Source: an uncultured Lentisphaeraceae bacterium (GTDB taxonomy: Bacteria; Verrucomicrobiota; Kiritimatiellia; RFP12; UBA1067). From it: a stretch of DNA of 62,611 bases. This document shows positions 22,025 through 49,071 of this stretch, one piece after another. The translations under genes and the position numbers were made by a program. Position 1 is the first letter of the stretch. Every line of letters begins with the position of its first letter. Location: assembly GCA_964557205.1 (NCBI GenBank), contig CAZKZI010000002.1:1-62611 (forward strand). The letters run 5' to 3'. The notes beneath the pieces are model-generated. The model was not told the origin of the DNA, did no database searches, and saw nothing but the letters and a program-made list of their open reading frames with translations.

Positions 22025-24610
22025 ATGAGTATTCGTAATTGCATTGAAAGAGTTATAAATGATTGGCCCACTGAAAAGAGTAAGCCATTTAAAGGAAACG
22101 AGCTGGCCGAATTTATTCGTACAGTTTTTACCAATGAAGTCCGCGAAATCGTAGGTTCCATAAATCCAATGCTAAAGGTTAAAGCGAGTCCCGGCGCTGG
22201 AAATTGGGCGAGTGTTCCGTGGTTGGCCATTCTGGACCCGAAAATAACAGATTCTACTGAAGACGGCGTTTACCCCGTATATTTTTTCCGTGCTGACGGC
22301 ACAGGTGGCTATTTGTCTTTAGGTCAAGGTACGACAACTCCCACTAAGTTGTTGGGTAAAAAAAGGGCAAGAATACGCGCTCAGGTGATGGCCGCAGATT
22401 TGCGCAAACAAATTCCCTTGCTCAACAAATGGATAGAGGGAAAGACATATCTTCGCACAGAAACTAATCTTGGCGGATCATATGAAGACGCAAATATTGG
22501 GGCACGTTTGTACGAAAAAGGACAAGTTCCAAGCGAAGAAGTGCTTCGTGAGGATTTGGCGGATATATTATCCATATATCAGGAAGTAGTTAATATCTGG
22601 CCCTCAAAAGGACTTGTTAACACGCCACTGCAAAAAATGGTGAAGGCGTTTCGCCAAGACTTCCCCGACTTCAAAACCTTTGGGGATTGCGGACAAGATT
22701 TTCTGAAGAACGAAGACGGGTACAAGCGTAAAGCGGTTAGTCTATTCTCTGAATTATTCAATGATTGGCTGGATGGAGCCCCAGACAGTTTGGAAGCATC
22801 GGATTTTTCAGCCAAAATCCTTAAGATTTTCAGGAAGACTAATTTGCTCGACTGGCGTACCGTGGATAAAATCGACGGAAACATTTTAAAGTCGGCCAAA
22901 TTGCTACCTCAGTTCCAGACGCTGTGCCATAGTCTACTGGTCAAAGCCAGAAGCGGGAAGATGCTGGACAGCGAGTTGGAGTCTCTGGTCGGGTTTATGG
23001 TCCAGAAGGGGAAAGCGCCGCGTGCCGCAACCCAAATGATCCCCTCTTATCTGCTGATGCTCGCCAAGCCAACAAAATACATTTTCATCAAACCGACACT
23101 GGTTGACGCTTTCTTCCAGCGCTTGGGGCACGGTGATCTGCTGGGACAGCCTTGGCTAACCGCGGAGGCCTACGGTAAAGTGCTGGGGCTTTTTGTAAAT
23201 GTCCAATCACAGCTCGCGGAGCTTGGCCCGCGGGATATGATCGACCTGCAGTCCTTCTACTATGTTGTTGTGGGGTATGGACAAAAAGGGGCTGTTATGC
23301 TGCCTGAACCAGAAGGCTCAGTGGAGAAATCCGTGGACTACTCAAAAGTTTTTCCAGAAATCGTGCCGGCTTTTGCAACCGCGATATCTGAATCCGGGTT
23401 TTGCATTGGCAATAATCTGCCTTTGCGGTTCATCTCGTCGTTAACCGCGAAGCCGTATGTTGTTCTCACAGGAAATTCCGGTACTGGGAAAACCAAACTG
23501 GCGGAACTTTTTCCCCGATGGCTTAGCTGTGAAGCGAACGATCGGCTCGCCTTGGTTCCTGTTGGAGCTGACTGGACCGATAGCCGTAATGTCCTCGGTT
23601 TTGTAAACCACATTCGGTCTACCAAGCCTGTTGGAGAAACGGTCGATGTGCCGCTTTATCAGTCCACCGTTATCCTAGACTTGCTTCTCGCCGCTAGGAC
23701 TCAACCGTCCCAACCGTTTTTCCTGATTCTCGATGAGATGAATCTCTCCCACGTGGAGCGATATTTTGCGGATTTTTTAAGCACCATGGAATCAGCGAAG
23801 GGTGAGTTGCTGTTGCATTGCGAGGGCCGCTTGCTCCCTCGCAAATTGGGCGGGGCCGCCGATGTTCCGGAAGTTCTGCCGATGCCGCGCAATGTGTTCG
23901 TCGTCGGTACTGTGAATGTGGATGAGACAACTTACATGTTTAGTCCGAAAGTCTTGGACCGCGCGAACGTGATTGAATTTCGAATTACTAAGGATGAGGT
24001 TAATAAGTTTTTTGAGCAAGGCGGAGGTAATATTGGCGAGTTAGAGTCAGCGCCGGAGGGTACCGCAGAGGCGTTTTTGGAACTTTCTCTGCGTGCACGT
24101 GGTGTGCGGAGGGCTGACGATAGTGAGCGGGAGCCGCTGGCTGCCCCAGCCAAACTTGCTGAATGCCAAGAAAAGCTGAAAGAAGTTTTCGAAATCCTTT
24201 CAAACGCTCGGTTGGAATTTGGATACCGTACACTGAACGAGGTTTTACGTTATGCCCGAGTTGATTTTGAGTTAACAGAGGATAAAACGAAGTGGAAGTG
24301 GGAGGATTGCATGGACGCGCAGATCCTGCAGAAGATCTTGCCGAAACTTCATGGGAGCAAGCGCAGGATTGAAACTGTGCTTATCGAACTGGCTCGTTAC
24401 TGCGAAACGGGCCTTTTGCATGAGGAGAAGAGCGTTTACGCCTCAGACTTTATGGTTACGCCTAAAGTCAAAAGAGTCCCTAGACCAAAGAAAAGCGAAG
24501 GGGACACAATTCCAGGACCGGATACAGTTGTTTTCCGCGAGAGTTACGAGAAACTGTGCGACATGATCGATGCGGTCCGGCGTGACCAGTTTGTCAGCTT
24601 CATCCAATAA
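22025..24610 (+). CDS. McrB-family AAA+ NTPase with an N-terminal DUF3578 (MrcB_N-like) domain; type IV restriction specificity/motor subunit
   Basis: The N-terminus KVKASPGAGNWASVPWLAILDPKITDSTEDGVYPVYFFRADGTGGYLSLGQGTT is the DUF3578 signature. Walker A is LTGNSGTGKTKLA. Walker B region is FFLILDEMNLSHVERYFADFLSTME. VVGTVNVDETTYMFSPKVLDRANVIEF corresponds to the McrB GTMNTADRS...RRF region. Confidence 0.85.
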   Translation: MSIRNCIERVINDWPTEKSKPFKGNELAEFIRTVFTNEVREIVGSINPMLKVKASPGAGNWASVPWLAILDPKITDSTEDGVYPVYFFRADGTGGYLSLGQGTTTPTKLLGKKRARIRAQVMAADLRKQIPLLNKWIEGKTYLRTETNLGGSYEDANIGARLYEKGQVPSEEVLREDLADILSIYQEVVNIWPSKGLVNTPLQKMVKAFRQDFPDFKTFGDCGQDFLKNEDGYKRKAVSLFSELFNDWLDGAPDSLEASDFSAKILKIFRKTNLLDWRTVDKIDGNILKSAKLLPQFQTLCHSLLVKARSGKMLDSELESLVGFMVQKGKAPRAATQMIPSYLLMLAKPTKYIFIKPTLVDAFFQRLGHGDLLGQPWLTAEAYGKVLGLFVNVQSQLAELGPRDMIDLQSFYYVVVGYGQKGAVMLPEPEGSVEKSVDYSKVFPEIVPAFATAISESGFCIGNNLPLRFISSLTAKPYVVLTGNSGTGKTKLAELFPRWLSCEANDRLALVPVGADWTDSRNVLGFVNHIRSTKPVGETVDVPLYQSTVILDLLLAARTQPSQPFFLILDEMNLSHVERYFADFLSTMESAKGELLLHCEGRLLPRKLGGAADVPEVLPMPRNVFVVGTVNVDETTYMFSPKVLDRANVIEFRITKDEVNKFFEQGGGNIGELESAPEGTAEAFLELSLRARGVRRADDSEREPLAAPAKLAECQEKLKEVFEILSNARLEFGYRTLNEVLRYARVDFELTEDKTKWKWEDCMDAQILQKILPKLHGSKRRIETVLIELARYCETGLLHEEKSVYASDFMVTPKVKRVPRPKKSEGDTIPGPDTVVFRESYEKLCDMIDAVRRDQFVSFIQ

Positions 24611-29444: not shown

Positions 29445-29771
29445 AAAATATAAATTCATACTCCTGAATACGCCGACGATCGGCGGCCAGATTGTTGAGG
29501 CGGGGTTAGTACAGGGCGAGCGTGGATGTTCTCGGGGCAGGCTCGTGTTTTCCAGGGAAGCGCTGATCGCGAAAGGGGCTACCTGGGCGATGGATGCCTG
29601 CCTTATCTTCTGGTTTATGATGTCGCGCCGCTGGATGAAAATGATCCCTTGAACGGATATGTCTGGGATCTTTCGAAAGTACCTGACGTCGACAGCGGGC
29701 TCGGCTCCGCCGTTCCGAAGAAAGGCATCGCGTTGAGTGAGCTGATGAAAGCCGCGAATAAGAAAACGTAG

Positions 29772-30120
29772 TACGGAGGGAGAGCGCTCAAGGGGAGATG
29801 TGGAATGGGGGAGAGTAGCAGTTGGCAGAAGCAGTGGGCAGAGATGGTCCGTCTTCGTCCGGCAGATGCCCGTCTTCTTCCCTCATGAGCGGGATTTCGT
29901 CGTGATACAGCCGGACTACGTCGCGGCAGACCGGGGTAGCGGGGTGGGGGAAGTTCTAAAGTTTGAGAGTGCAAAAATGCGGGAGTTGGGGGAAGAGGGA
30001 AGACAGTGGGCAGTAAGCAGTAGGCAGGGCGGAAAGCGCGGTAGGCACGATAAGCACGATAAGCCGGGGTAGCGGGATGGGGATGGTGGAAGTTCGAGAG
30101 TGCGGAAGTTGGGGGAGAGA
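29772..30120 (+). repeat. purine-rich 7-nt-periodic tract with two ~57-70-nt direct repeats
   Basis: Heptad runs are visible (GGCAGAA GCAGTGG GCAGAGA; GCAGTAA GCAGTAG GCAGGGC). 29931-30000 and 30064-30120 are direct repeats (CCGGGGTAGCGGG.TGGGG...GAAGTTC...GAGAGTGC...GGAGTTGGGGGA.GAG). Confidence 0.6.
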
Positions 30121-30180
30121 CGCGATAGGCCCTCTGCCTTAACAACGGCTTGCATTACCCGGCAATAGACATGGAACAGT

Positions 30181-30203
30181 TGCCTTGCCTTGCCTTGCCT
30201 TGC
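30181..30203. repeat. pentanucleotide microsatellite (TGCCT)x4
   Basis: tgccttgccttgccttgccttgc, read directly; about 130 nt upstream of tlyA. Confidence 0.9.
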
Positions 30204-30333
30204 GCTGACCTGTTGTGGTAACTTGTAGTCATGGCAAAGCGGTTGAGCGGATGGCGGAAAGGCTGATGACCAACAGGGTTGTGCAGCGGGCGGCCGCGCG
30301 GGTCTTAAGGATGCTGGAAACAGGAAAAGTCTA

Positions 30334-31122
30334 ATGTCAAACTACGCCCCCTGTGTGGGATTAAAGAGGCGTCTTGACGAACTGCTGGTCATGGCCGGTC
30401 TGGCTGAGAGCAAAGAGCGCGCAAAGCGGCTGATTATGGCGGGTGAGGTGCGGGCGGGAGGGCAGGTGGCGACCAAGCCCGGACACAAGTATGCCGCTGA
30501 CGTGAGCCTGACAGTGGCGGCGCGCCCACGTTTCGTAAGCCGCGGCGGCGATAAACTGGAAGGGGCTTTTGCCGCCTTTCCGGCCTTTGATGTTGGGGCG
30601 AAAGTCTGTTTGGATGTGGGAGCTTCGACAGGCGGGTTCACTGATTGCCTGCTGCAGCACGGCGCGGCACGTGTGATAGCGCTGGACGTGGGCAAGGGAC
30701 AATTGCACTGGAAGATGCGGCAGGATCCGCGGGTGCATGTGATCGAAGGTTTCAACGCGCGGTATATGCGGTTGTCCGACCTGCCAGAGCAACCGCAGGC
30801 TGCTGTGACGGATGTCTCTTTCATCTCGCTGAAGCTGATATTGCCGCCGATATCGGACGTGCTGCCGCCGGGAGGCGAGATCGTTTCTCTGATCAAGCCG
30901 CAGTTCGAGGCCGGTCGCGAGAACGTGCCCGGCGGTGTCGTGCGTGATCCGGCGGTGCGAGAGGCGGTGGTGGCGGGAATCCGTGATTTCGGAACCGGAT
31001 TTTTGCATCTTGAATGGCTTGGCTGTGTAGAATCGCCGTTGAAGGGTCCGGAAGGGAATGTCGAGTTCCTGGCGTTGTGGCGCAAGGAGAAGAGAGAAGA
31101 GAGAATAGGGAATAGGGAATAG
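30334..31122 (+). CDS. tlyA: TlyA-family rRNA (cytidine-2'-O)-methyltransferase
   Basis: S4-like N-terminus (RLDELLVMAGLAESKERAKRLIMAGEVR), FVSRGGDKLEGA, and the SAM motif CLDVGASTGGFTDCLLQHGA. The last ~12 codons (RKEKREERIGNRE) are encoded by the downstream repeat tract. Confidence 0.85.
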   Translation: MSNYAPCVGLKRRLDELLVMAGLAESKERAKRLIMAGEVRAGGQVATKPGHKYAADVSLTVAARPRFVSRGGDKLEGAFAAFPAFDVGAKVCLDVGASTGGFTDCLLQHGAARVIALDVGKGQLHWKMRQDPRVHVIEGFNARYMRLSDLPEQPQAAVTDVSFISLKLILPPISDVLPPGGEIVSLIKPQFEAGRENVPGGVVRDPAVREAVVAGIRDFGTGFLHLEWLGCVESPLKGPEGNVEFLALWRKEKREERIGNRE

Positions 31123-31475
31123 GGAAGAGTGAATAGTGAAGAGGGAATAGTGGAGAGTGGAGAGAGCAGGGACCGGGGGATTTCAACCACAGAGAACACT
31201 GAGAGCACAGAGAGAGAGAAGAGAGAATAGGGAATAGGGAATAGTGGAGAGTGGAGAGACCGGGGGATTTGTAACCACGAATGAGAAAGAAAGCAAGGAC
31301 CGGGGGATTTTTAACCACAGAGAACACTGAGAGCACAGAGAGAGAGAATAGTGAATAGTGAATAGTGAATAGGGAATAGGGCAGAATTAGGAATTAGGAA
31401 TTAGGAGTTAGGGGCGTGGCGCGGCTGGTGGAATAGTGAAGAGGGAAGAGAGCAGGGGCCGGGGGCGTTAGAGTA
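31085..31475 (+). repeat. cluster of purine-rich 7-nt-periodic tracts with three copies of a conserved core
   Basis: Heptads GAATAGG x3, GAAGAGT, GAATAGT, GAAGAGG, GAATAGT, GGAGAGT and so on. The core CA.GGACCGGGGGATTT(C/TT)AACCACAGAGAACACTGAGAGCACAGAGAGAGAG occurs at 31167-31218 and 31294-31346. A partial core lies at 31254-31285. Confidence 0.85.
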
Positions 31476-31524
31476 GGCATTTTTTTTGTTACAGTCCGAA
31501 GCTGTTTGCGTATATATTAAAGGC

Positions 31525-33237
31525 ATGAAGCTTTTTTGCGTCATTTTAGCCGCCGCTCTGATCATTGCGCTGCCTTTCATGTTAAGGAAGGCGCCTGCCG
31601 CGGGTGAGTGGAACGATGGCGATCCCGAGCTGATTGTTGTGACCGCCCACAATGAGGCTTTCCGGCAGGAGTTTGCCGATGGTTTTTCAGCTTGGCACCG
31701 GGAAAGATACGGCAGTCCGGTGCGTATCGACTGGCGGGTGATCGGCGGCACGACCGAGATCATGCGTTATCTGGCGTCGGAGTACGCGGCTTCCGCGCGG
31801 CGTTATTTCACTGGACTAGGCCTGCCGTGGCCGGCTGATGGCAGCGCGGCGGTGCTGGCCGCCAAAAGGCCGGAGCCGGAAGACCGCGGGGAATTGTGGG
31901 AGAGGTTTAGGGCATCGGACAACGCCGCTGAGATCACCTGCCGCATGGATCTGTTTTTCGGTGGCGGCACGTATGACCACTCTAAGGCGGAGCGGCAGGG
32001 GCTCACGGTGTCGGCCTGGGGTCAGGCAGGCCCGCCGCCTGGTATATTCGAGGATGCGGATGGGCGTGTGCTGATACCGCGAGAGATGAACGGCGAGGTC
32101 TGGTACGGCGAGGCTTATTACGGCTGTGTGCTGAGCGCCTTCGGAATTTGTTACAACCGCGACCGTCTGGCGGACCTCGGGATCGATAAGCGTCCTGAGG
32201 CGTGGCGGGATCTGGCTGATCCGCGTTATTTCGGCACGTTAGGGTTGGCTGATCCATCCAAAAGCGGCAGCGTGGCCAAAGCTTATGAGATGGTGATACA
32301 CGAACAGTGCGCCAAGGCCGTAACTGAGGCCGGGTTCACGCGCGAGCAGATCCGGGAGTTCGAGCGGATGGCCTTTTCAACGGGAGGTTCCGCCGGGCTG
32401 CCGCAGGCATATCAGGCCGCAGTTGAGCGCGGATGGTTGGCTGGCATAAACCTGATGCGCCGCATCGGGGCCAACGCGCGTTACTTCTCCGACGCGTCGG
32501 GCAAGGTGCCTGTGGATGTCAGCGCGGGCGCGGCAGCGGCGGGGATTGCCATTGACTTTTTCGGCAGGCTGCAATCAGAGATGTCCACTCCGCCGGGCGG
32601 CGAGCCGGTTATGTGCTATATCACGCCGATGGGAGGTTCCGGGGTTAATTCAGATCCTATAAGTCTGTTGCGCGGTGCGCCGCACCGGGCGCTGGCGGTG
32701 CGTTTCATCGAGTTCACGCTCGGCGAAGAGGGTCAGCGCCTCTGGAGTTACAGCGTTGGCGAGCCCGGCGGACCGCGGCGCTTCACCTTGCGGCGTTTGC
32801 CTATACGGCGAGATTTCTATCCGTCGGACGACCCGGTGTTGCAGGCGACTTTTGAGCGGCACCGTGCCCATCTCGCCGAGCCCTTGTGGGAGCCGGAGGT
32901 CGACGCCTACCGGCTGGGCGCGTCCTTTATTTATGAGGCGCGCTGGACCAGTCGGCATTTCGGTGTGCAGCGCGACTTGATCCGGGCCATGTGCATGGAC
33001 TCCGGCGATGAGCTGCGGAGTGCGTGGCAGGCCATTCTGGAAAACGGCGGGCCTGAGAACAATCCCGAGGCAATGCGGCTGCTCAATGCGTTGCCGGACC
33101 AGCCGCGTCCCTTGACCTGGGCCAGCGCGGTCGACATTTACGCCACAGTGCCGCGGCTGGAACTGCTGCGCGACTGGACGGCGTTTTTCCGTCGGCAGTA
33201 CCGGCTGGCCGAGAAAAAGGCCTGCACGACCCGATAG
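31525..33237 (+). CDS. periplasmic solute-binding protein (ABC-type, iron/polyamine-like PBP2 fold)
   Basis: Lies within ORF 31486..33237. ATG 31525 gives signal peptide MKLFCVILAAALIIALPF. PELIVVTAHNEAFRQEFADGFSAW...IDWRVIGGTTEIMRYL is typical of this SBP class. The substrate is unknown. Confidence 0.6.
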   Translation: MKLFCVILAAALIIALPFMLRKAPAAGEWNDGDPELIVVTAHNEAFRQEFADGFSAWHRERYGSPVRIDWRVIGGTTEIMRYLASEYAASARRYFTGLGLPWPADGSAAVLAAKRPEPEDRGELWERFRASDNAAEITCRMDLFFGGGTYDHSKAERQGLTVSAWGQAGPPPGIFEDADGRVLIPREMNGEVWYGEAYYGCVLSAFGICYNRDRLADLGIDKRPEAWRDLADPRYFGTLGLADPSKSGSVAKAYEMVIHEQCAKAVTEAGFTREQIREFERMAFSTGGSAGLPQAYQAAVERGWLAGINLMRRIGANARYFSDASGKVPVDVSAGAAAAGIAIDFFGRLQSEMSTPPGGEPVMCYITPMGGSGVNSDPISLLRGAPHRALAVRFIEFTLGEEGQRLWSYSVGEPGGPRRFTLRRLPIRRDFYPSDDPVLQATFERHRAHLAEPLWEPEVDAYRLGASFIYEARWTSRHFGVQRDLIRAMCMDSGDELRSAWQAILENGGPENNPEAMRLLNALPDQPRPLTWASAVDIYATVPRLELLRDWTAFFRRQYRLAEKKACTTR

Positions 33238-33245
33238 AGAACATT

Positions 33246-34715
33246 ATGGAAAAAGGCTTTTATTGGGGGTTGGTAAACAGACTGCATGCCGCAGTAGCGG
33301 CTGGCCTACTGGCGCTCTTATCAGGCTGCTGTTATCATGCGGTCAAGCCCTTGCCGGATGGGCTTTCGTATAGCAGCGGGTGGCTACCGGTGCCGGAAGC
33401 CCGGTTCTTGAGCGACCGCTCCGGTGTGGACGCTGTCGGGCGGCGGCTGGTGGAACAGGAGATTTTCGACGAGGTGTTCGGCATGATCGCCCGAGCCGAA
33501 AGGCTGGTGCTGGTAGACATGTTCCTGTTCAATGATTTTCTCGGCGTCGGTCCGCCGCCGCACCGCTGTCTCAGCAAAGAGCTGACCGAGACCCTGATCG
33601 CGCGCAAGCGTGCTGTGCCGGGATTGCGTGCGGTGCTGATCACCGACCCGGTGAATACAGTTTACGGCGGCATGGAGAACACTTATCTAAAACGTTTGGA
33701 GGCGGCTGGGGTCGAGGTGGTTGTCACCCGCCTGGAGGCGCTGCGCGACAGCAACACCGCCTGGTCGAGCGTATGGAGATTGTTCGTCCAACCTTTTGGC
33801 AACAGCCCGGGCGGCCGGGTGGCAAACCCTTTCGGTCCGGGCCGGGTCACTGTGCGCAGTTGGCTGGCGCTGCTCAACTTCAAGGCCAACCATCGTAAAG
33901 TGGTGGTGGCAGACGCGGGCGGCAGGCTGTACGCGCTGGTTACTTCCGCCAACCCGCATGACGGCAGCAGCGCCCACTCGAACGTCGGGATTGTGTTCGA
34001 GGGCGTGGCGGCGCAGGCAGTGCTGGAGACGGAGCAGGCGGTGCTGGAATTCAGCGCCGCGCCGACAGCGCCTTTATGCAACGAGTTCGTGGATGCCGCG
34101 GCGCACGCCGGGGGTCTGCCTGACGCGGGCGGAGTGCGGTTGCAGGTGCTGACCGAAGCGGCGATCGCAGATGCGGCCGAGGCCATGATAGACAGCTTGG
34201 ATGCAGGTGATCGGCTGGACCTGGTCATGTTTTATCTGGCTGACCGCGGTGTTGTCTGTGCGCTCAAGGCTGCGGCAGGATGCGGCGTGTCCTTGCGCGT
34301 GGCACTTGATCCGAACAAGGACGCTTTCGGGCGGCAGAAAAGCGGGATGCCGAACCGGCAGGTGGCGCGGGAACTGGTGGCGGCGGGTGTGCCGGTGCGC
34401 TGGGCGGTGACGAGCGGCGAGCAGATGCATTCCAAGCTGCTGTTGGCGCGAAGGGCTGACGGCTCGGCTGATCTGCTTTTGGGCTCGGCAAACTTCACGC
34501 GCAGGAATCTTCGGGACTACAATCTGGAGACCAACGTGCGTTTGTCCGGCGGAGCTGAAACGCCCGCGCTGTGCGCTGCGGCGGATTACGCCGAGCTGGT
34601 CTGGAACAACACAGGGCGCGTTTACACGACAGCTTACGAGAAGTATCGCGACGATTCGCGCTGGCGCGTCTGGCGTTACCGACTGCAGGAGGCCACTGGT
34701 CTCTGCACCTGGTAA
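33246..34715 (+). CDS. phospholipase D-family (two HKD motifs) lipoprotein
   Basis: Lipobox LLALLSGC. HKD-1 is NHRKVVVAD. HKD-2 is MHSKLLLARR...LLGSANFTRRN. Confidence 0.85.
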   Translation: MEKGFYWGLVNRLHAAVAAGLLALLSGCCYHAVKPLPDGLSYSSGWLPVPEARFLSDRSGVDAVGRRLVEQEIFDEVFGMIARAERLVLVDMFLFNDFLGVGPPPHRCLSKELTETLIARKRAVPGLRAVLITDPVNTVYGGMENTYLKRLEAAGVEVVVTRLEALRDSNTAWSSVWRLFVQPFGNSPGGRVANPFGPGRVTVRSWLALLNFKANHRKVVVADAGGRLYALVTSANPHDGSSAHSNVGIVFEGVAAQAVLETEQAVLEFSAAPTAPLCNEFVDAAAHAGGLPDAGGVRLQVLTEAAIADAAEAMIDSLDAGDRLDLVMFYLADRGVVCALKAAAGCGVSLRVALDPNKDAFGRQKSGMPNRQVARELVAAGVPVRWAVTSGEQMHSKLLLARRADGSADLLLGSANFTRRNLRDYNLETNVRLSGGAETPALCAAADYAELVWNNTGRVYTTAYEKYRDDSRWRVWRYRLQEATGLCTW

Positions 34716-34860
34716 GAGAGAGAGAATAGAGAAGAGAGAATAGTGAAAGAGTGAAGAGTGGAGAGAGCAGGGGCCGGGGGATTTTAACCACAGAGAGCAC
34801 AGAGAGAGAGGGAATGGGGAAGATGGAAGAGGGAAGAGGGAATAGTTAATAGTGAATGCT
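34716..34860 (+). repeat. purine-rich heptad tract plus one core copy, starting right after the PLD stop codon
   Basis: The core CAGGGGCCGGGGGATTTTAACCACAGAGAGCACAGAGAGAGAG lies at 34768-34810, flanked by GAATAG/GAAGAG heptads. Confidence 0.85.
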
Positions 34861-35034
34861 GGCAGGTTTGCATTGGTCTGTTCCTGTTCGAGCCAGCCGT
34901 GCGCGAGTGTGTGGCGGAGACCGTCTAGGAACGAAAAATCTCTTCCAGCGCACGGCGCACGGCTTTGTCTTTCGGCACGTAGCCGACGTGACATAATAGA
35001 GTCCGTCCGTGTAATCGTGGCTTGCTAGGCGCAA
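34846..35034 (-). pseudogene. possible remnant of an IS200/RAYT-like Y1 transposase N-terminus
   Basis: The minus-strand frame reads RLASHDYTDGLYYVTSATCRKTKP, resembling the conserved RAYT start (..YDYS..G.YFVT.CT..R.). The similarity is short, and downstream frames look scrambled. Confidence 0.25.
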
Positions 35035-46649: not shown

Positions 46650-48803
46650 ATGAAAAGACGTGAGATGTTGGTGGCGACGGGATCGGCGGTGATGGGGATG
46701 AGCATGCGGCCTTTTGTCGCGCATGCGCAGGTCGGCGTAAAGACGGGCGGCAAAAAAGTTTTCCGGGCTGGGGCCTGTGCGCAGGACATCACGCCGGAAT
46801 ATTTTCCGATCGCCGTGAACGGCGGGTTTAAGCCGCGCTATGTCGAGAAGGCGCTTGATCCGCTACACGCGCGCTGTCTGGTGCTTGATGACGGCGCGGG
46901 CCAGATCGCCATGGTGGTGGTCGACAGTTGTGTGCTGGGCCGTGAATTGATGGAAGAAGCCAAGCAGACGGCCAGCCGTCTGACGGGGATTCCAGTCGGC
47001 CGGATTTTCATCTCCGCCACGCACACGCACTCCGCCCCGGCGGTGATCAGCCTGCTGGGCACGGATCTGGAACCGCGTTACCGTGCGTGGTTGCCGGGCA
47101 AGATCGCGGAAGGCATTCATAAGGCGAGCAAGGCGCTGGCGCCGGCACAGGTCGGCTGGGCGGTTGAAAGCCTGCCGGAAGTGGCGCAGTCGCGCCGCTG
47201 GATCGCGAGGCCAGACCGCATAAAGGAGGATCCTTTCGGCGAGTTTACCACTAGGGCGACCATGCATCCGGGATACCGCAACCCGGACTGGGAAGAGCCT
47301 TCGGGACCGATGAATCCGGAGGTCAGCGTACTGGCGGTACGCCGGCCTGACGGTTCGCCGATTGCCTTGCTGGGGAGCTTTTCGATCCACTATGTCGGCT
47401 CCGGCGCTCTTTCGGCCGATTACTTCGGCGTTTTCGCGGAGCGCGTCGCCGCCCTGCTGGAAGCGGGACGGGAGGGGCGGCCTTTTGTGGGAATTTTAGC
47501 CAACGGGGTCAGTGGCGACGCATATCTCAAGAATTACACTTTGGAGAAGCAGGACAAGTTCGACAAGCACTCCATTGCCGAGGTGGTGGCGCAGGCGGCG
47601 TGCAAAGCCTACCGCGCGGCGGTTTGGAGTGACTGGCTGCCGCTGGATGTGCGCGAATCAGAGCTGGAACTGAAACTGCGTGAACCCAAGATCGAGTGGG
47701 CGAAGAAAATCATGGCGGAGATCGAGGCTGGACGCGAGAAGGCGGAATCGCTGACCGGGGCTTACGCGCGTGAGCAATTTTTGCTGGCTGAGATGCCTAA
47801 AACCGTTCGGCTCAAACTGCAGACTTTGCGCATCGGCAAGTTGGCGATCGTGGGTATCCCCTGCGAGGTCTTTGCGATCACGGGTTTGCGGATCGCGGAG
47901 GCGAGTCCGTTCGAGCACACCTTCACGGTGATGCTGGCTAACGGCTATAATGGCTATCTGCCGCCGCCCGAACAGATGGTCATGGGCGGGTACACCACAT
48001 GGCTGGCGCGGTCCAGTTATCTGGAGACGGAGGCCGAGCCGAAGATCGTGGCTGAGGTCGGGAAACTGCTGACCGGGCTGGTCGGCGGCGGGGCGGTCAA
48101 GCGCGCGCCGAGACCGCTAGCGCCGTACGCCGTGGCGGTTATGGCGTCCGAACCGCTGGTATATTGGCGGCTGGACGAGCTGGCCGGGCCGCATGCGCTG
48201 AACGCGGTGGACGGGCGGCCGCTGGGAAAATTCGGCATGCCCACGGCCTACCACATGCCCGGCGCGCAGGCGCCGGATTTCCCCGGGCTTGGCGCTGGCA
48301 ACCGCGTGCCGCATTTTGTTGGCAAGCCCTTGTCGGCGGCGGTGGCCGGGCTGGCCGGGTCTTACAGCGTCGAGTTCTGGTTTTACAACTGCATGCCGTC
48401 CGACGCGCGCGCTGTGACGGGTTACCTGTTCGCGCGCGGCAACGGCGACCGGCTGGCCATCGGCGGCACGGCGCAGGCACCGGGGAAACTGGTGTTCCAT
48501 GTCGGGGACGATCTTGGGCAGGCGTTAGGCGGCAAGACCGATGTGCCGTTGCGCAATTGGGTGGATCGAGAGAGCTGGCATCATGTGGCTTTCGTGCGCG
48601 ATGGCCAGACGGTCAAGGTGTATCTCGACGGCAAGCCGGAGCTGGCTACGGAGACCGCGTCGCCGGACGCGTCGCCGGATTTATGGATTGGCGGCAAGGG
48701 TGACGGCGAGCTGGGGTTTGAAGGCCGCATTGACGAGGTGGCCGTGTTCAGCCGTGCGCTGGGCGCCGAGGAGATCGTGCGGCACTACCGGGCGGCGGTG
48801 TAG
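46650..48803 (+). CDS. neutral/alkaline ceramidase-like N-terminal domain + C-terminal LamG domain protein (Tat-type signal)
   Basis: RBS GGGGGAG. The N-terminus MKRREMLVATGSAVMGMSMRPFVAHA looks like a Tat signal. RAGACAQDITPE...LHARCLVLDDG...VVVDSC...ISATHTHSAP follows the ceramidase-like pattern. The C-terminal LamG motif is GRIDEVAVFSRALGAEEIVRHY. Confidence 0.65.
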   Translation: MKRREMLVATGSAVMGMSMRPFVAHAQVGVKTGGKKVFRAGACAQDITPEYFPIAVNGGFKPRYVEKALDPLHARCLVLDDGAGQIAMVVVDSCVLGRELMEEAKQTASRLTGIPVGRIFISATHTHSAPAVISLLGTDLEPRYRAWLPGKIAEGIHKASKALAPAQVGWAVESLPEVAQSRRWIARPDRIKEDPFGEFTTRATMHPGYRNPDWEEPSGPMNPEVSVLAVRRPDGSPIALLGSFSIHYVGSGALSADYFGVFAERVAALLEAGREGRPFVGILANGVSGDAYLKNYTLEKQDKFDKHSIAEVVAQAACKAYRAAVWSDWLPLDVRESELELKLREPKIEWAKKIMAEIEAGREKAESLTGAYAREQFLLAEMPKTVRLKLQTLRIGKLAIVGIPCEVFAITGLRIAEASPFEHTFTVMLANGYNGYLPPPEQMVMGGYTTWLARSSYLETEAEPKIVAEVGKLLTGLVGGGAVKRAPRPLAPYAVAVMASEPLVYWRLDELAGPHALNAVDGRPLGKFGMPTAYHMPGAQAPDFPGLGAGNRVPHFVGKPLSAAVAGLAGSYSVEFWFYNCMPSDARAVTGYLFARGNGDRLAIGGTAQAPGKLVFHVGDDLGQALGGKTDVPLRNWVDRESWHHVAFVRDGQTVKVYLDGKPELATETASPDASPDLWIGGKGDGELGFEGRIDEVAVFSRALGAEEIVRHYRAAV

Positions 48804-49071
48804 GGAAGAGAGAAGAATTAGGAATTAGGATGGATGCAAGCCAGCCGTGCTGCTGTGCTGGGGAGACGGGTTATTGCGACCACCAAGTGGACGCAATGGA
48901 GAGGGTAAAAAAAGAAAGAGAGAAGAGAGAGTAGGGAAGAGGGAAGAGAGAAAGAGTGGAGAGAGAATAGCCCCCCCGCCCGGGGTTTCGGTAATGAACG
49001 AGGTGGTAACGGTTATCAACGAATTAAACGAATGAGACGAATTATAATTAGCTTAATTAGCTTAATTCGGT
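48804..49071 (+). repeat. purine-rich heptad tracts, a degenerate core, and a 9-nt-periodic AT-rich tract
   Basis: It starts at the stop codon (TAGGGAAGAGAGAAGAATTAGGAATTAGGA). GAGTGGAGAGAGAATAGCCCCCCCGCCCGGGGTTT resembles the core's left part. 49018-49071 has 9-nt periodicity (AACGAATTA AACGAATGA GACGAATTA TAATTAGCT TAATTAGCT TAATTCGGT). Confidence 0.7.

Follow-up and report, generated by a model that had tools for sequence, protein, structure and literature searches.

The tract that directly follows a tlyA-like gene at positions 31085-31475 of the DNA analysed here, a 62,611-nt stretch of contig CAZKZI010000002.1 from an uncultured Lentisphaeraceae bacterium (in the following called the window), is a real and well-delimited repeat without a gene of its own. 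It is a species-specific variant of known intergenic repeats, namely of heptameric simple repeats and of hairpin elements resembling the intervening sequences (IVS) of rRNA genes. With an estimated probability of about 0.55, it represents a fragment of a modular selfish repeat system that is young, one-armed and amplified in tandem and would be tolerated because of its orientation.

The initial annotation had described a purine-rich tract with 7-nt periodicity and two full cores, which is borne out by composition and periodicity. The plus strand of 31085-31475 consists of 77.5% purines and contains just 9% C, and its identity at a lag of 7 nt amounts to 0.59, corresponding to a z value of 12.5 relative to shuffled sequences. 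Additional signals occur at lags of 14 nt (z 5.4) and 9 nt (z 3.1), the latter because the cores hold words with a period of 9 nt. Tandem Repeats Finder delimits period-7 arrays at 31087-31166, 31201-31259, 31346-31379 and 31384-31412, and a 90-nt stretch including both full cores recurs with a period of 128 nt at 83% identity. No inverted repeats of at least 20 nt are present in 31000-31520, in agreement with the earlier statement that the tract is neither a classical repetitive extragenic palindromic (REP) hairpin nor a CRISPR-like array. The CRISPR-like reading is rejected because the stretches between the cores are heptad repeats, not unique spacers.

As judged from an alignment of the copies in the window and weaker related copies from other contigs, the repeat unit is composed of a G-rich head (about 17 nt), a short run of T, the motif AACCAC and three 9-nt CAC words, while a sister type carries AGCCRC in place of AACCAC. 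Purine heptads are found on both sides of the unit, the words vary from copy to copy, units with different words are often paired in tandem, and the whole repeating unit including the heptad array measures about 100-130 nt. At the tlyA locus, where all parts lie on the plus strand, the first purine heptad array (31088-31165) starts within the last codons of the tlyA-like gene (30334-31122) and encodes the final 11 residues of its product together with the TAG stop codon (31120-31122). It is followed by core unit 1 (31166-31218; nhmmer E value 1e-17), consisting of the head at 31166-31183, AACCAC at 31185-31190 and three 9-nt CAC words extending up to 31214. The second heptad array (31213-31253) links this core via a common GA run with a partial unit (31254-31292), which contains a head, AACCAC and one CACGAAT-type word that is also present on contigs C27, C107 and C202. 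This unit corresponds to the previously described partial core at 31254-31285, which could be confirmed and belongs to the repeat family D3. Core unit 2 (31293-31346; E value 9e-17) is near-identical to core unit 1 and is followed by heptad arrays 3 and 4 (31346-31412), which are of the GAATAGT type and then of the GAATTAG type, with matches of 96% and 95% according to Tandem Repeats Finder. The tract continues with half of a 'centre' module (31413-31431), whose inverse partner is missing at this locus, and with a segment (31432-31487) comprising a short heptad stretch, a head-only copy (31452-31469) and a run of eight T (31480-31487). While all copies listed in the initial annotation were recovered, this head-only copy had been overlooked. 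The downstream gene, coding for a solute-binding protein, begins with an ATG at 31525.

The genome, assembled to 3.24 Mb in 245 contigs and 92.7% complete, contains only three strong nhmmer hits to the exact core, which is nearly confined to the window, and about 20-30 weaker relatives on other contigs. The third strong copy (34767-34806) lies behind a gene for a PLD-like protein, as had been noted earlier. The three arms consisting of a T run, AACCAC and three words are located at 31181-31214, 31308-31342 and 34782-34806 in the window, and the same order of heptads, head, T run and AACCAC words is also found at 34713-34848 and on contigs C133, C173, C27, C63, C131, C107 and C202. With a threshold of at least 27 purines or pyrimidines among 30 bases, 119 purine/pyrimidine tracts were counted genome-wide, compared with 10 in a shuffled genome, and word units number 42 compared with 0. 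This genome has 10 copies of the junction between head and arm; in 200 genomes of the class its frequency matches that of a reversed-pattern control, and it is absent from the five nearest relatives. The earlier proposal of a genome-specific class thus holds for the head-plus-arm junction among the genomes searched, but not for the heptad arrays and the word arm, which are widespread; the broader assignment to an intergenic repeat class is supported.

Complete elements are present elsewhere in the genome, in which the centre module pairs with its own inverse between inverted heptad arms. Those on contigs C131, C133, C170 and C5 fold at -50 to -67 kcal/mol, and the tlyA locus at -30. No partner arm exists in the window, and every purine tract on the contig lies on the plus strand; because these arms are solitary and all point in the same direction, no hairpin can be formed. 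Tandem arrangements were also observed in G006, a genome from another genus of the family, which contains arrays of 21 x 143 bp (locus L018, 996-4015) and 9 x 115 bp (locus L019, 974-2013). The copies are 98-100% identical, and each period consists of two units of head, T run and words, the words differing between the two.

Comparison with related genomes indicates that the tracts are young and were gained recently. The next gene follows tlyA after about 400 nt in the window, but after 15-35 nt in G001 and G003, two genomes of the same genus in which tlyA is 86-88% identical. The TlyA orthologues of these two genomes end differently, right after a Trp-Arg-Lys sequence shared with the window protein, which here continues through the array-encoded residues to a stop codon supplied by a heptad. 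The C-terminus of the PLD-like protein is conserved, but its gene ends with TAA here and with TGA in the relatives, and no array follows this gene in G001, G003 or G007. Since the tracts are absent at the same loci in same-genus genomes, they are not needed by these operons. Note that the relatives are represented by fragmented metagenome-assembled genomes (MAGs) of 81-84% completeness. Two of their contigs stop at corresponding positions, one (locus L147; contig C326 of G002) no more than 20 nt from the stop codon of the tlyA orthologue and the other (locus L162; contig C171 of G001) exactly at the end of the orthologue of a LamG-domain gene, the counterpart of which precedes a third array in the window.

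The arm of the unit has a much wider distribution than its head. A scan for AACCAC plus three CAC words over a 596-Gb collection, taking one genome per species, matched at least 120 loci, compared with about 2 expected by chance, as estimated from the information content of the pattern and the size of the collection. The matches listed come from Planctomycetota, Verrucomicrobiota, Acidobacteriota, several proteobacterial classes, Bacteroidota, Cyanobacteria, Chloroflexota, Spirochaetota, a lineage of the Candidate Phyla Radiation and others. Among these listed matches, a T run is present just ahead of AACCAC, often with an inverted copy that ends in the complement plus an A run; an exact inverted copy of the terminal 10-mer occurs within 1500 nt downstream of 38 of 133 arms, at distances of 34-432 nt; 28 of 135 arms start no more than 15 nt after an open reading frame (ORF) of at least 100 codons on the same strand, 11 of them overlapping the stop codon by 1 or 2 nt; and 4 of 120 loci have a gene of the GxxExxY family (PF13366) no more than 150 nt away from the arm. 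Conservation of the G-rich head across phyla was considered and rejected, as only the T run before AACCAC is common, and among the metagenome matches listed for the head/arm junction, words follow in just 5 of 120, the remainder looking like chance matches.

A connection of the arm with small genes is also evident within the genome itself, where all four PF13366 genes have inverted word arms on their flanks. Both genes on contig C123 are flanked by CAC-word arms of the same kind as in the core, one of which begins with AACCAC, and these arms are weakly matched by the core profile; the gene on contig C1 has arms of the related AGCCGC kind, and that on contig C6 has other words. At positions 3240-3560 of C123, the right arm together with the last approximately 30 nt of a GxxExxY gene forms a tandem repeat with a period of 61 nt, which extends into a gap of the assembly. 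Three complete genes for four-helix-bundle proteins of the 23S-IVS type (PF05635) lie between inverted arrays of other words that differ by locus, all outside rRNA genes (C14, 17100-17830 and 33790-34297; C139, 3000-3620), and only one side of a fourth, truncated PF05635 gene, located on C52, bears word arrays. The tlyA tract contains no PF13366 or PF05635 ORF. No description of AACCAC-word elements or of the repeat context of GxxExxY genes was found in the literature searched.

The orientation of the tracts relative to genes was analysed with genes predicted by a home-made caller based on codon usage. In gaps between co-directional genes, all 13 tracts located no more than 20 nt from the upstream stop codon are in sense orientation and none is antisense, whereas those farther away are divided into 21 sense and 14 antisense cases and are not significantly biased on their own (Fisher p 0.01 for the contrast). 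The initial annotation had stated that the purine strand is always the coding strand of the upstream gene; this is correct for arrays abutting the stop codon but not for more distant ones, and the rule is therefore conditional, arrays being sense-only where they touch a stop codon. The previously reported clustering at stop codons likewise applies to the tlyA-like, PLD-like and LamG-domain genes, but not to the ORF ending at 29771, which is followed by a different G-rich repeat. The 35 nt after the stop codon contain at least 85% purines in 11 of 1906 genes and at least 85% pyrimidines in one, so purine tracts directly after the stop codon affect less than 1% of genes.

A simple reason for this bias may lie in the genetic code. 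In a purine-rich strand with an occasional T, three of the four possible T-purine-purine triplets are stop codons, and the stop triplets of the tracts indeed amount to 5.1 per 100 nt for the purine strand, compared with 0.5 for the other strand. The three frames of the tlyA tract hold 11, 12 and 7 stop codons in sense direction (30 in total), compared with 2, 1 and 4 in antisense direction. A sense array overrunning the end of a gene would thus stop translation within a few codons, whereas an antisense array, being nearly free of stop codons, would append a long tail to the protein. Such a selective filter would allow only sense-oriented arrays to survive where they touch stop codons and may have caused the strand bias; the stop-triplet asymmetry of the two strands makes the bias explicable without any function of the arrays.

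Taken as a fragment of a selfish repeat system, the tract may have arisen as follows. The part of the core consisting of T run, AACCAC and three words is an arm of the same kind as those occurring elsewhere in inverted pairs that form long hairpins, and a minority of these word-arm hairpins carry a small GxxExxY gene, which belongs to the PD-(D/E)XK nuclease fold. A unit would have entered two sites, one at or within the 3' end of tlyA and the other at the stop codon ending the PLD-like gene, and tandem amplification would have come next, either by slippage or by unequal exchange at the GA-rich unit ends. The earlier suggestion that the tract is the footprint of a mobile activity is accordingly the one favoured by the evidence, as the tracts are missing in same-genus genomes and share their arm with the hairpin elements flanking GxxExxY genes.

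Several points weigh against this explanation. Contigs from two of the relatives break off exactly where the genes concerned end and may hide arrays, and the comparison with G001 and G003 shows that the ancestral spacer behind tlyA was replaced, not simply interrupted. A target-site duplication or a clean insertion junction was looked for at the compared loci of these two genomes, and none is recognisable. Moreover, the units are not linked to a transposase or to any other gene for mobilisation. The association with GxxExxY genes is an enrichment and not a rule, as 116 of the 120 loci among the matches listed lack such a gene, and the genes for IVS-type proteins in this genome use words unlike those of the window. 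The conserved G-rich head is not explained by a selfish repeat, the probable lack of function is deduced from the absence of the tracts in relatives together with the absence of structure, and the gene calls depend on a home-made caller.

It is fairly unlikely that the arrays instead grew in place as microsatellites without any mobile element, with slippage being seeded at the purine-rich region of stop codons and Shine-Dalgarno sequences and the cores representing local duplications spread by gene conversion. The contiguity of the arrays with stop codons would fit such an origin, as would the start of the tlyA array at a purine-rich sequence resembling the Shine-Dalgarno block behind the stop codon in G001 and G003, the different numbers of units among the copies, and the near-confinement of the exact core to two loci 3.6 kb apart. 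Moreover, Rehm et al. (2015; PMC4692102) described heptamer repeats of Xanthomonas and Nostoc that lie on the sense strand near or overlapping stop codons. However, slippage leaves unexplained why a non-periodic 17-nt head joined to an arm of 9-nt words recurs on at least eight other contigs, and why the architecture of the arm is found in many phyla and beside GxxExxY genes.

The initial annotation had also considered a role in the stability or termination of transcript 3' ends, for which no signals were detected. Both strands of the tract fold into RNA structures no better than shuffled sequences (z -0.37 and -0.24), a consensus scan of 31085-31500 revealed no terminator-like or promoter-like site, and the T8 run at 31480-31487 is not preceded by a stem. 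A permissive Rfam scan of the region from 28 to 50 kb gave no match. Canonical G-quadruplex motifs are absent from the three loci of the window, and a single motif is found, at 34810, when loops may be as long as 12 nt; the interpretation as quadruplexes given by Rehm et al. is not transferable to this tract, as the canonical motifs are absent. The absence of the tracts in congeneric genomes and the missing structure, terminator and Rfam signals argue against a dedicated 3'-end role, and no dedicated regulatory role has been demonstrated for the tract.

It appears unlikely that the tract is a functional RNA spacer in a transcript reaching from tlyA to the gene for the solute-binding protein, acting as an unstructured, C-poor and stop-rich 3' UTR that traps ribosomes on read-through, as a spacer binding 30S subunits via its Shine-Dalgarno-like words, or as a sense strand resistant to Rho, the C-rich complement of which would load Rho onto antisense transcripts. 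The strand asymmetry with only 9% C in sense direction, the 30 stop codons distributed over all three sense frames, the 13 Shine-Dalgarno-like tetramers within 391 nt, and the strictly sense orientation of arrays touching stop codons are in line with this possibility, and most of the comparable Xanthomonas repeats are transcribed (PMC4692102). On the other hand, genomes of the same genus lack the tract at these loci, a tract of this kind directly follows the stop codon in only about 11 of 1906 genes, orientation away from stop codons is not significantly biased, neither a conserved structure nor an Rfam family is apparent, and a length of 400 nt far exceeds the needs of a ribosome trap.

A DNA-level array of protein-binding sites, in which the three direct 9-bp words and perhaps the head would be bound in the manner of iterons, either by a nucleoid-associated protein or by one encoded in the elements (for instance the four-helix-bundle or the GxxExxY nuclease-like protein), with a role in chromosome organisation or as recognition sites of the enzyme moving or maintaining the elements, is very unlikely: the arm does have a fixed start (T run plus AACCAC) and at least three words of constrained form across phyla where an RNA stem could vary, it flanks genes of a nuclease-fold family, and the related genus has 9 and 21 copies of two-unit blocks at 98-100% identity, but the words differ between elements within one genome, the scan pattern forces the CAC-word form and renders the apparent constraint partly circular, a spacing of 9 bp shifts the sites off one face of the helix, and we know of no binding protein.

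Going beyond the window, the arm may tentatively be viewed as the marker of an unnamed, pan-bacterial group of small mobile hairpin elements with a GxxExxY or IVS-type gene, which would settle preferentially at stop codons. Hairpins without genes and one-armed tracts would then be relics of such elements, and the short tandemly repeated repetitive (STRR) sequences, the heptamers of Xanthomonas and Nostoc and the multicopy sequences of Geobacter might largely be their debris. This wider proposal is speculative and clearly less probable than the explanation preferred for the tract itself.

REP sequences, bacterial interspersed mosaic elements (BIMEs) and REP doublets forming hairpins (REPINs) are short, abundant, mosaic-like intergenic repeats built from imperfect palindromes, which are mobilised by a linked Y1 transposase, the REP-associated tyrosine transposase (RAYT). 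They resemble the tract in clustering after genes, in their species-specific sequences and in their modular arrangement, but the tract contains no palindrome, and a Y1 transposase (PF01797) was not found in the 92.7%-complete genome, while control genomes were matched. An assignment to the REP/RAYT systems is rejected on these two grounds. Compared with miniature inverted-repeat transposable elements (MITEs), the tlyA tract lacks terminal inverted repeats, and its junctions relative to G001 and G003 show a replaced spacer with no recognisable duplication.

Among the closest known counterparts are the G-rich, heterogeneous heptameric repeats described by Rehm et al. (2015; PMC4692102), with the units GGGAATC in Xanthomonas and GGGGAYT in Nostoc PCC 7120, whose function is unknown. 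Where these repeats overlap a stop codon or lie within 50 bp of it, the sense strand is the G-rich one, and repeats on the other strand lie farther away (PMC4692102). These arrays share with the tract the heterogeneous 7-nt units in tandem, the intergenic location mostly between co-directional genes and the same conditional sense rule. In contrast, the tract is rich in A and G with few G3 runs and without canonical quadruplex motifs, its arrays are joined to a non-periodic head and an arm of 9-nt words, and it occurs in another phylum. A second point of reference is the 23S IVS of Coxiella burnetii (Warrier et al., 2016; PMC4990558), a selfish element which has terminal inverted repeats and an S23p (PF05635) ORF, is excised by RNase III, and carries in its 5' arm an AG-rich block as well as three heptamers in tandem, the number of which differs among strains. 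The three complete PF05635 genes of the present genome resemble it in lying between inverted word arrays, albeit outside rRNA. The tract itself has no ORF, inverted partner or stem, is not located in rRNA and uses different words; without an inverted partner or stem, excision by RNase III cannot apply.

Further short-word repeats have been reported from unrelated bacteria. The multicopy sequences of Geobacter metallireducens are families of hepta- or octanucleotide words, four to five of them in tandem and mostly as pairs on opposite strands, which were interpreted, without tests, as regulatory RNAs or as sites for regulators (Aklujkar et al., 2009; PMC2700814). The Geobacter heptad GGGACCG, occurring in 49 places (PMC2700814), is identical to the opening seven bases of the head of the tract, which may be a coincidence, and neither an arm of AACCAC words nor a purine heptad array was described there. 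The TAACTGA repeats of the Beggiatoaceae are found just upstream of start codons, and horizontal spread by a mechanism not known has been suspected (MacGregor, 2015; PMC4679880). These repeats, the STRR sequences and other long simple repeats have in common with the tract that tandem heptamers occur in intergenic DNA of unrelated phyla, but the STRR, which were defined in heterocystous cyanobacteria, and the TAACTGA sets lack its composite unit.

The genes flanking the arrays of the window code for a TlyA-like S4/FtsJ methyltransferase, a PLD-domain protein, a LamG-domain protein and the solute-binding protein. The second locus (34713-34848, plus strand) opens within the stop codon of the PLD-like gene, at its second base, and contains core unit 3 at 34767-34806 (plus strand; nhmmer E value 3e-12) followed by more heptads, with period-7 arrays at 34715-34767 and 34807-34842. 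The third locus (48801-48830, plus strand) is a short heptad array contiguous with the TAG stop codon of the LamG-domain gene. Behind it, a hairpin module (48868-48915, plus strand) with an 11-bp stem, a 3-nt loop, a Shine-Dalgarno-like purine block and an A run precedes a purine array with a degenerate unit (48916-49045, plus strand), in which a period of 7 is found at 48916-48967 and a period of 9 at 49018-49044. The degenerate core previously placed near 48955-48990 has indeed a related head, but its three 9-nt words, within a unit located near 48972-49045, are of another type. A bracketing of small cassettes by neighbouring arrays was rejected, as the genes between them are full-length and have normal coding scores.

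The hairpin module, a 45-nt sequence with a near-perfect 11-bp stem, constitutes a separate and abundant repeat family with 47 copies in the genome that retain a stable stem, for example on contigs C14 (17816), C10 (32279, 33991 and 34776) and C93 (13314), and it is also found in G006. It often stands directly ahead of purine word arrays or of the arms of IVS-protein cassettes, has no T run after the stem, and is almost evenly oriented relative to genes (17 sense and 14 antisense). A half-centre motif and a 23-nt stretch follow the arrays at 34850-34900 and 48836-48860, and the 23-nt stretch recurs in inverted orientation on contig C22 (about 24200-24280); such recurrent modules behind the arrays mean that the spacers hold more module types than those analysed here. 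Upstream of tlyA, the region at 29771-30330 is a different, G-rich repeat region with a direct repeat of about 130 nt, tandem repeats of 13 nt and 9 nt, and (TTGCC)x5 at 30180-30203. Pfam gave no match for the 81-codon ORF that ends at 29771, and its coding score is weak.

The tracts also affect annotation and assembly. Their pyrimidine strand yields false ORFs, whereas their purine strand can replace the real C-terminus and stop codon of a gene, as in tlyA. The spurious low-complexity ORFs predicted by the initial annotation are found on the pyrimidine strand: the minus-strand ORFs at 30342-31208 (288 codons) and 30893-31336 (147 codons) are artefacts of its near lack of stop codons, and a length-based gene caller chose such an artefact over tlyA. 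Repeats of this kind may also break MAG assemblies.

The main value of the locus lies in a clear case of recent gain, in stop codons supplied by the array and in an arm linked across phyla. It provides a clear example of a conditional orientation rule that is explicable by a property of the genetic code alone, and it connects a species-specific repeat with an arm architecture of many phyla and with two families of small genes. If the elements were mobile, they would offer a concrete origin for the repeats of heptamers and short words, reports of which go back to 1990 but have left them unexplained.

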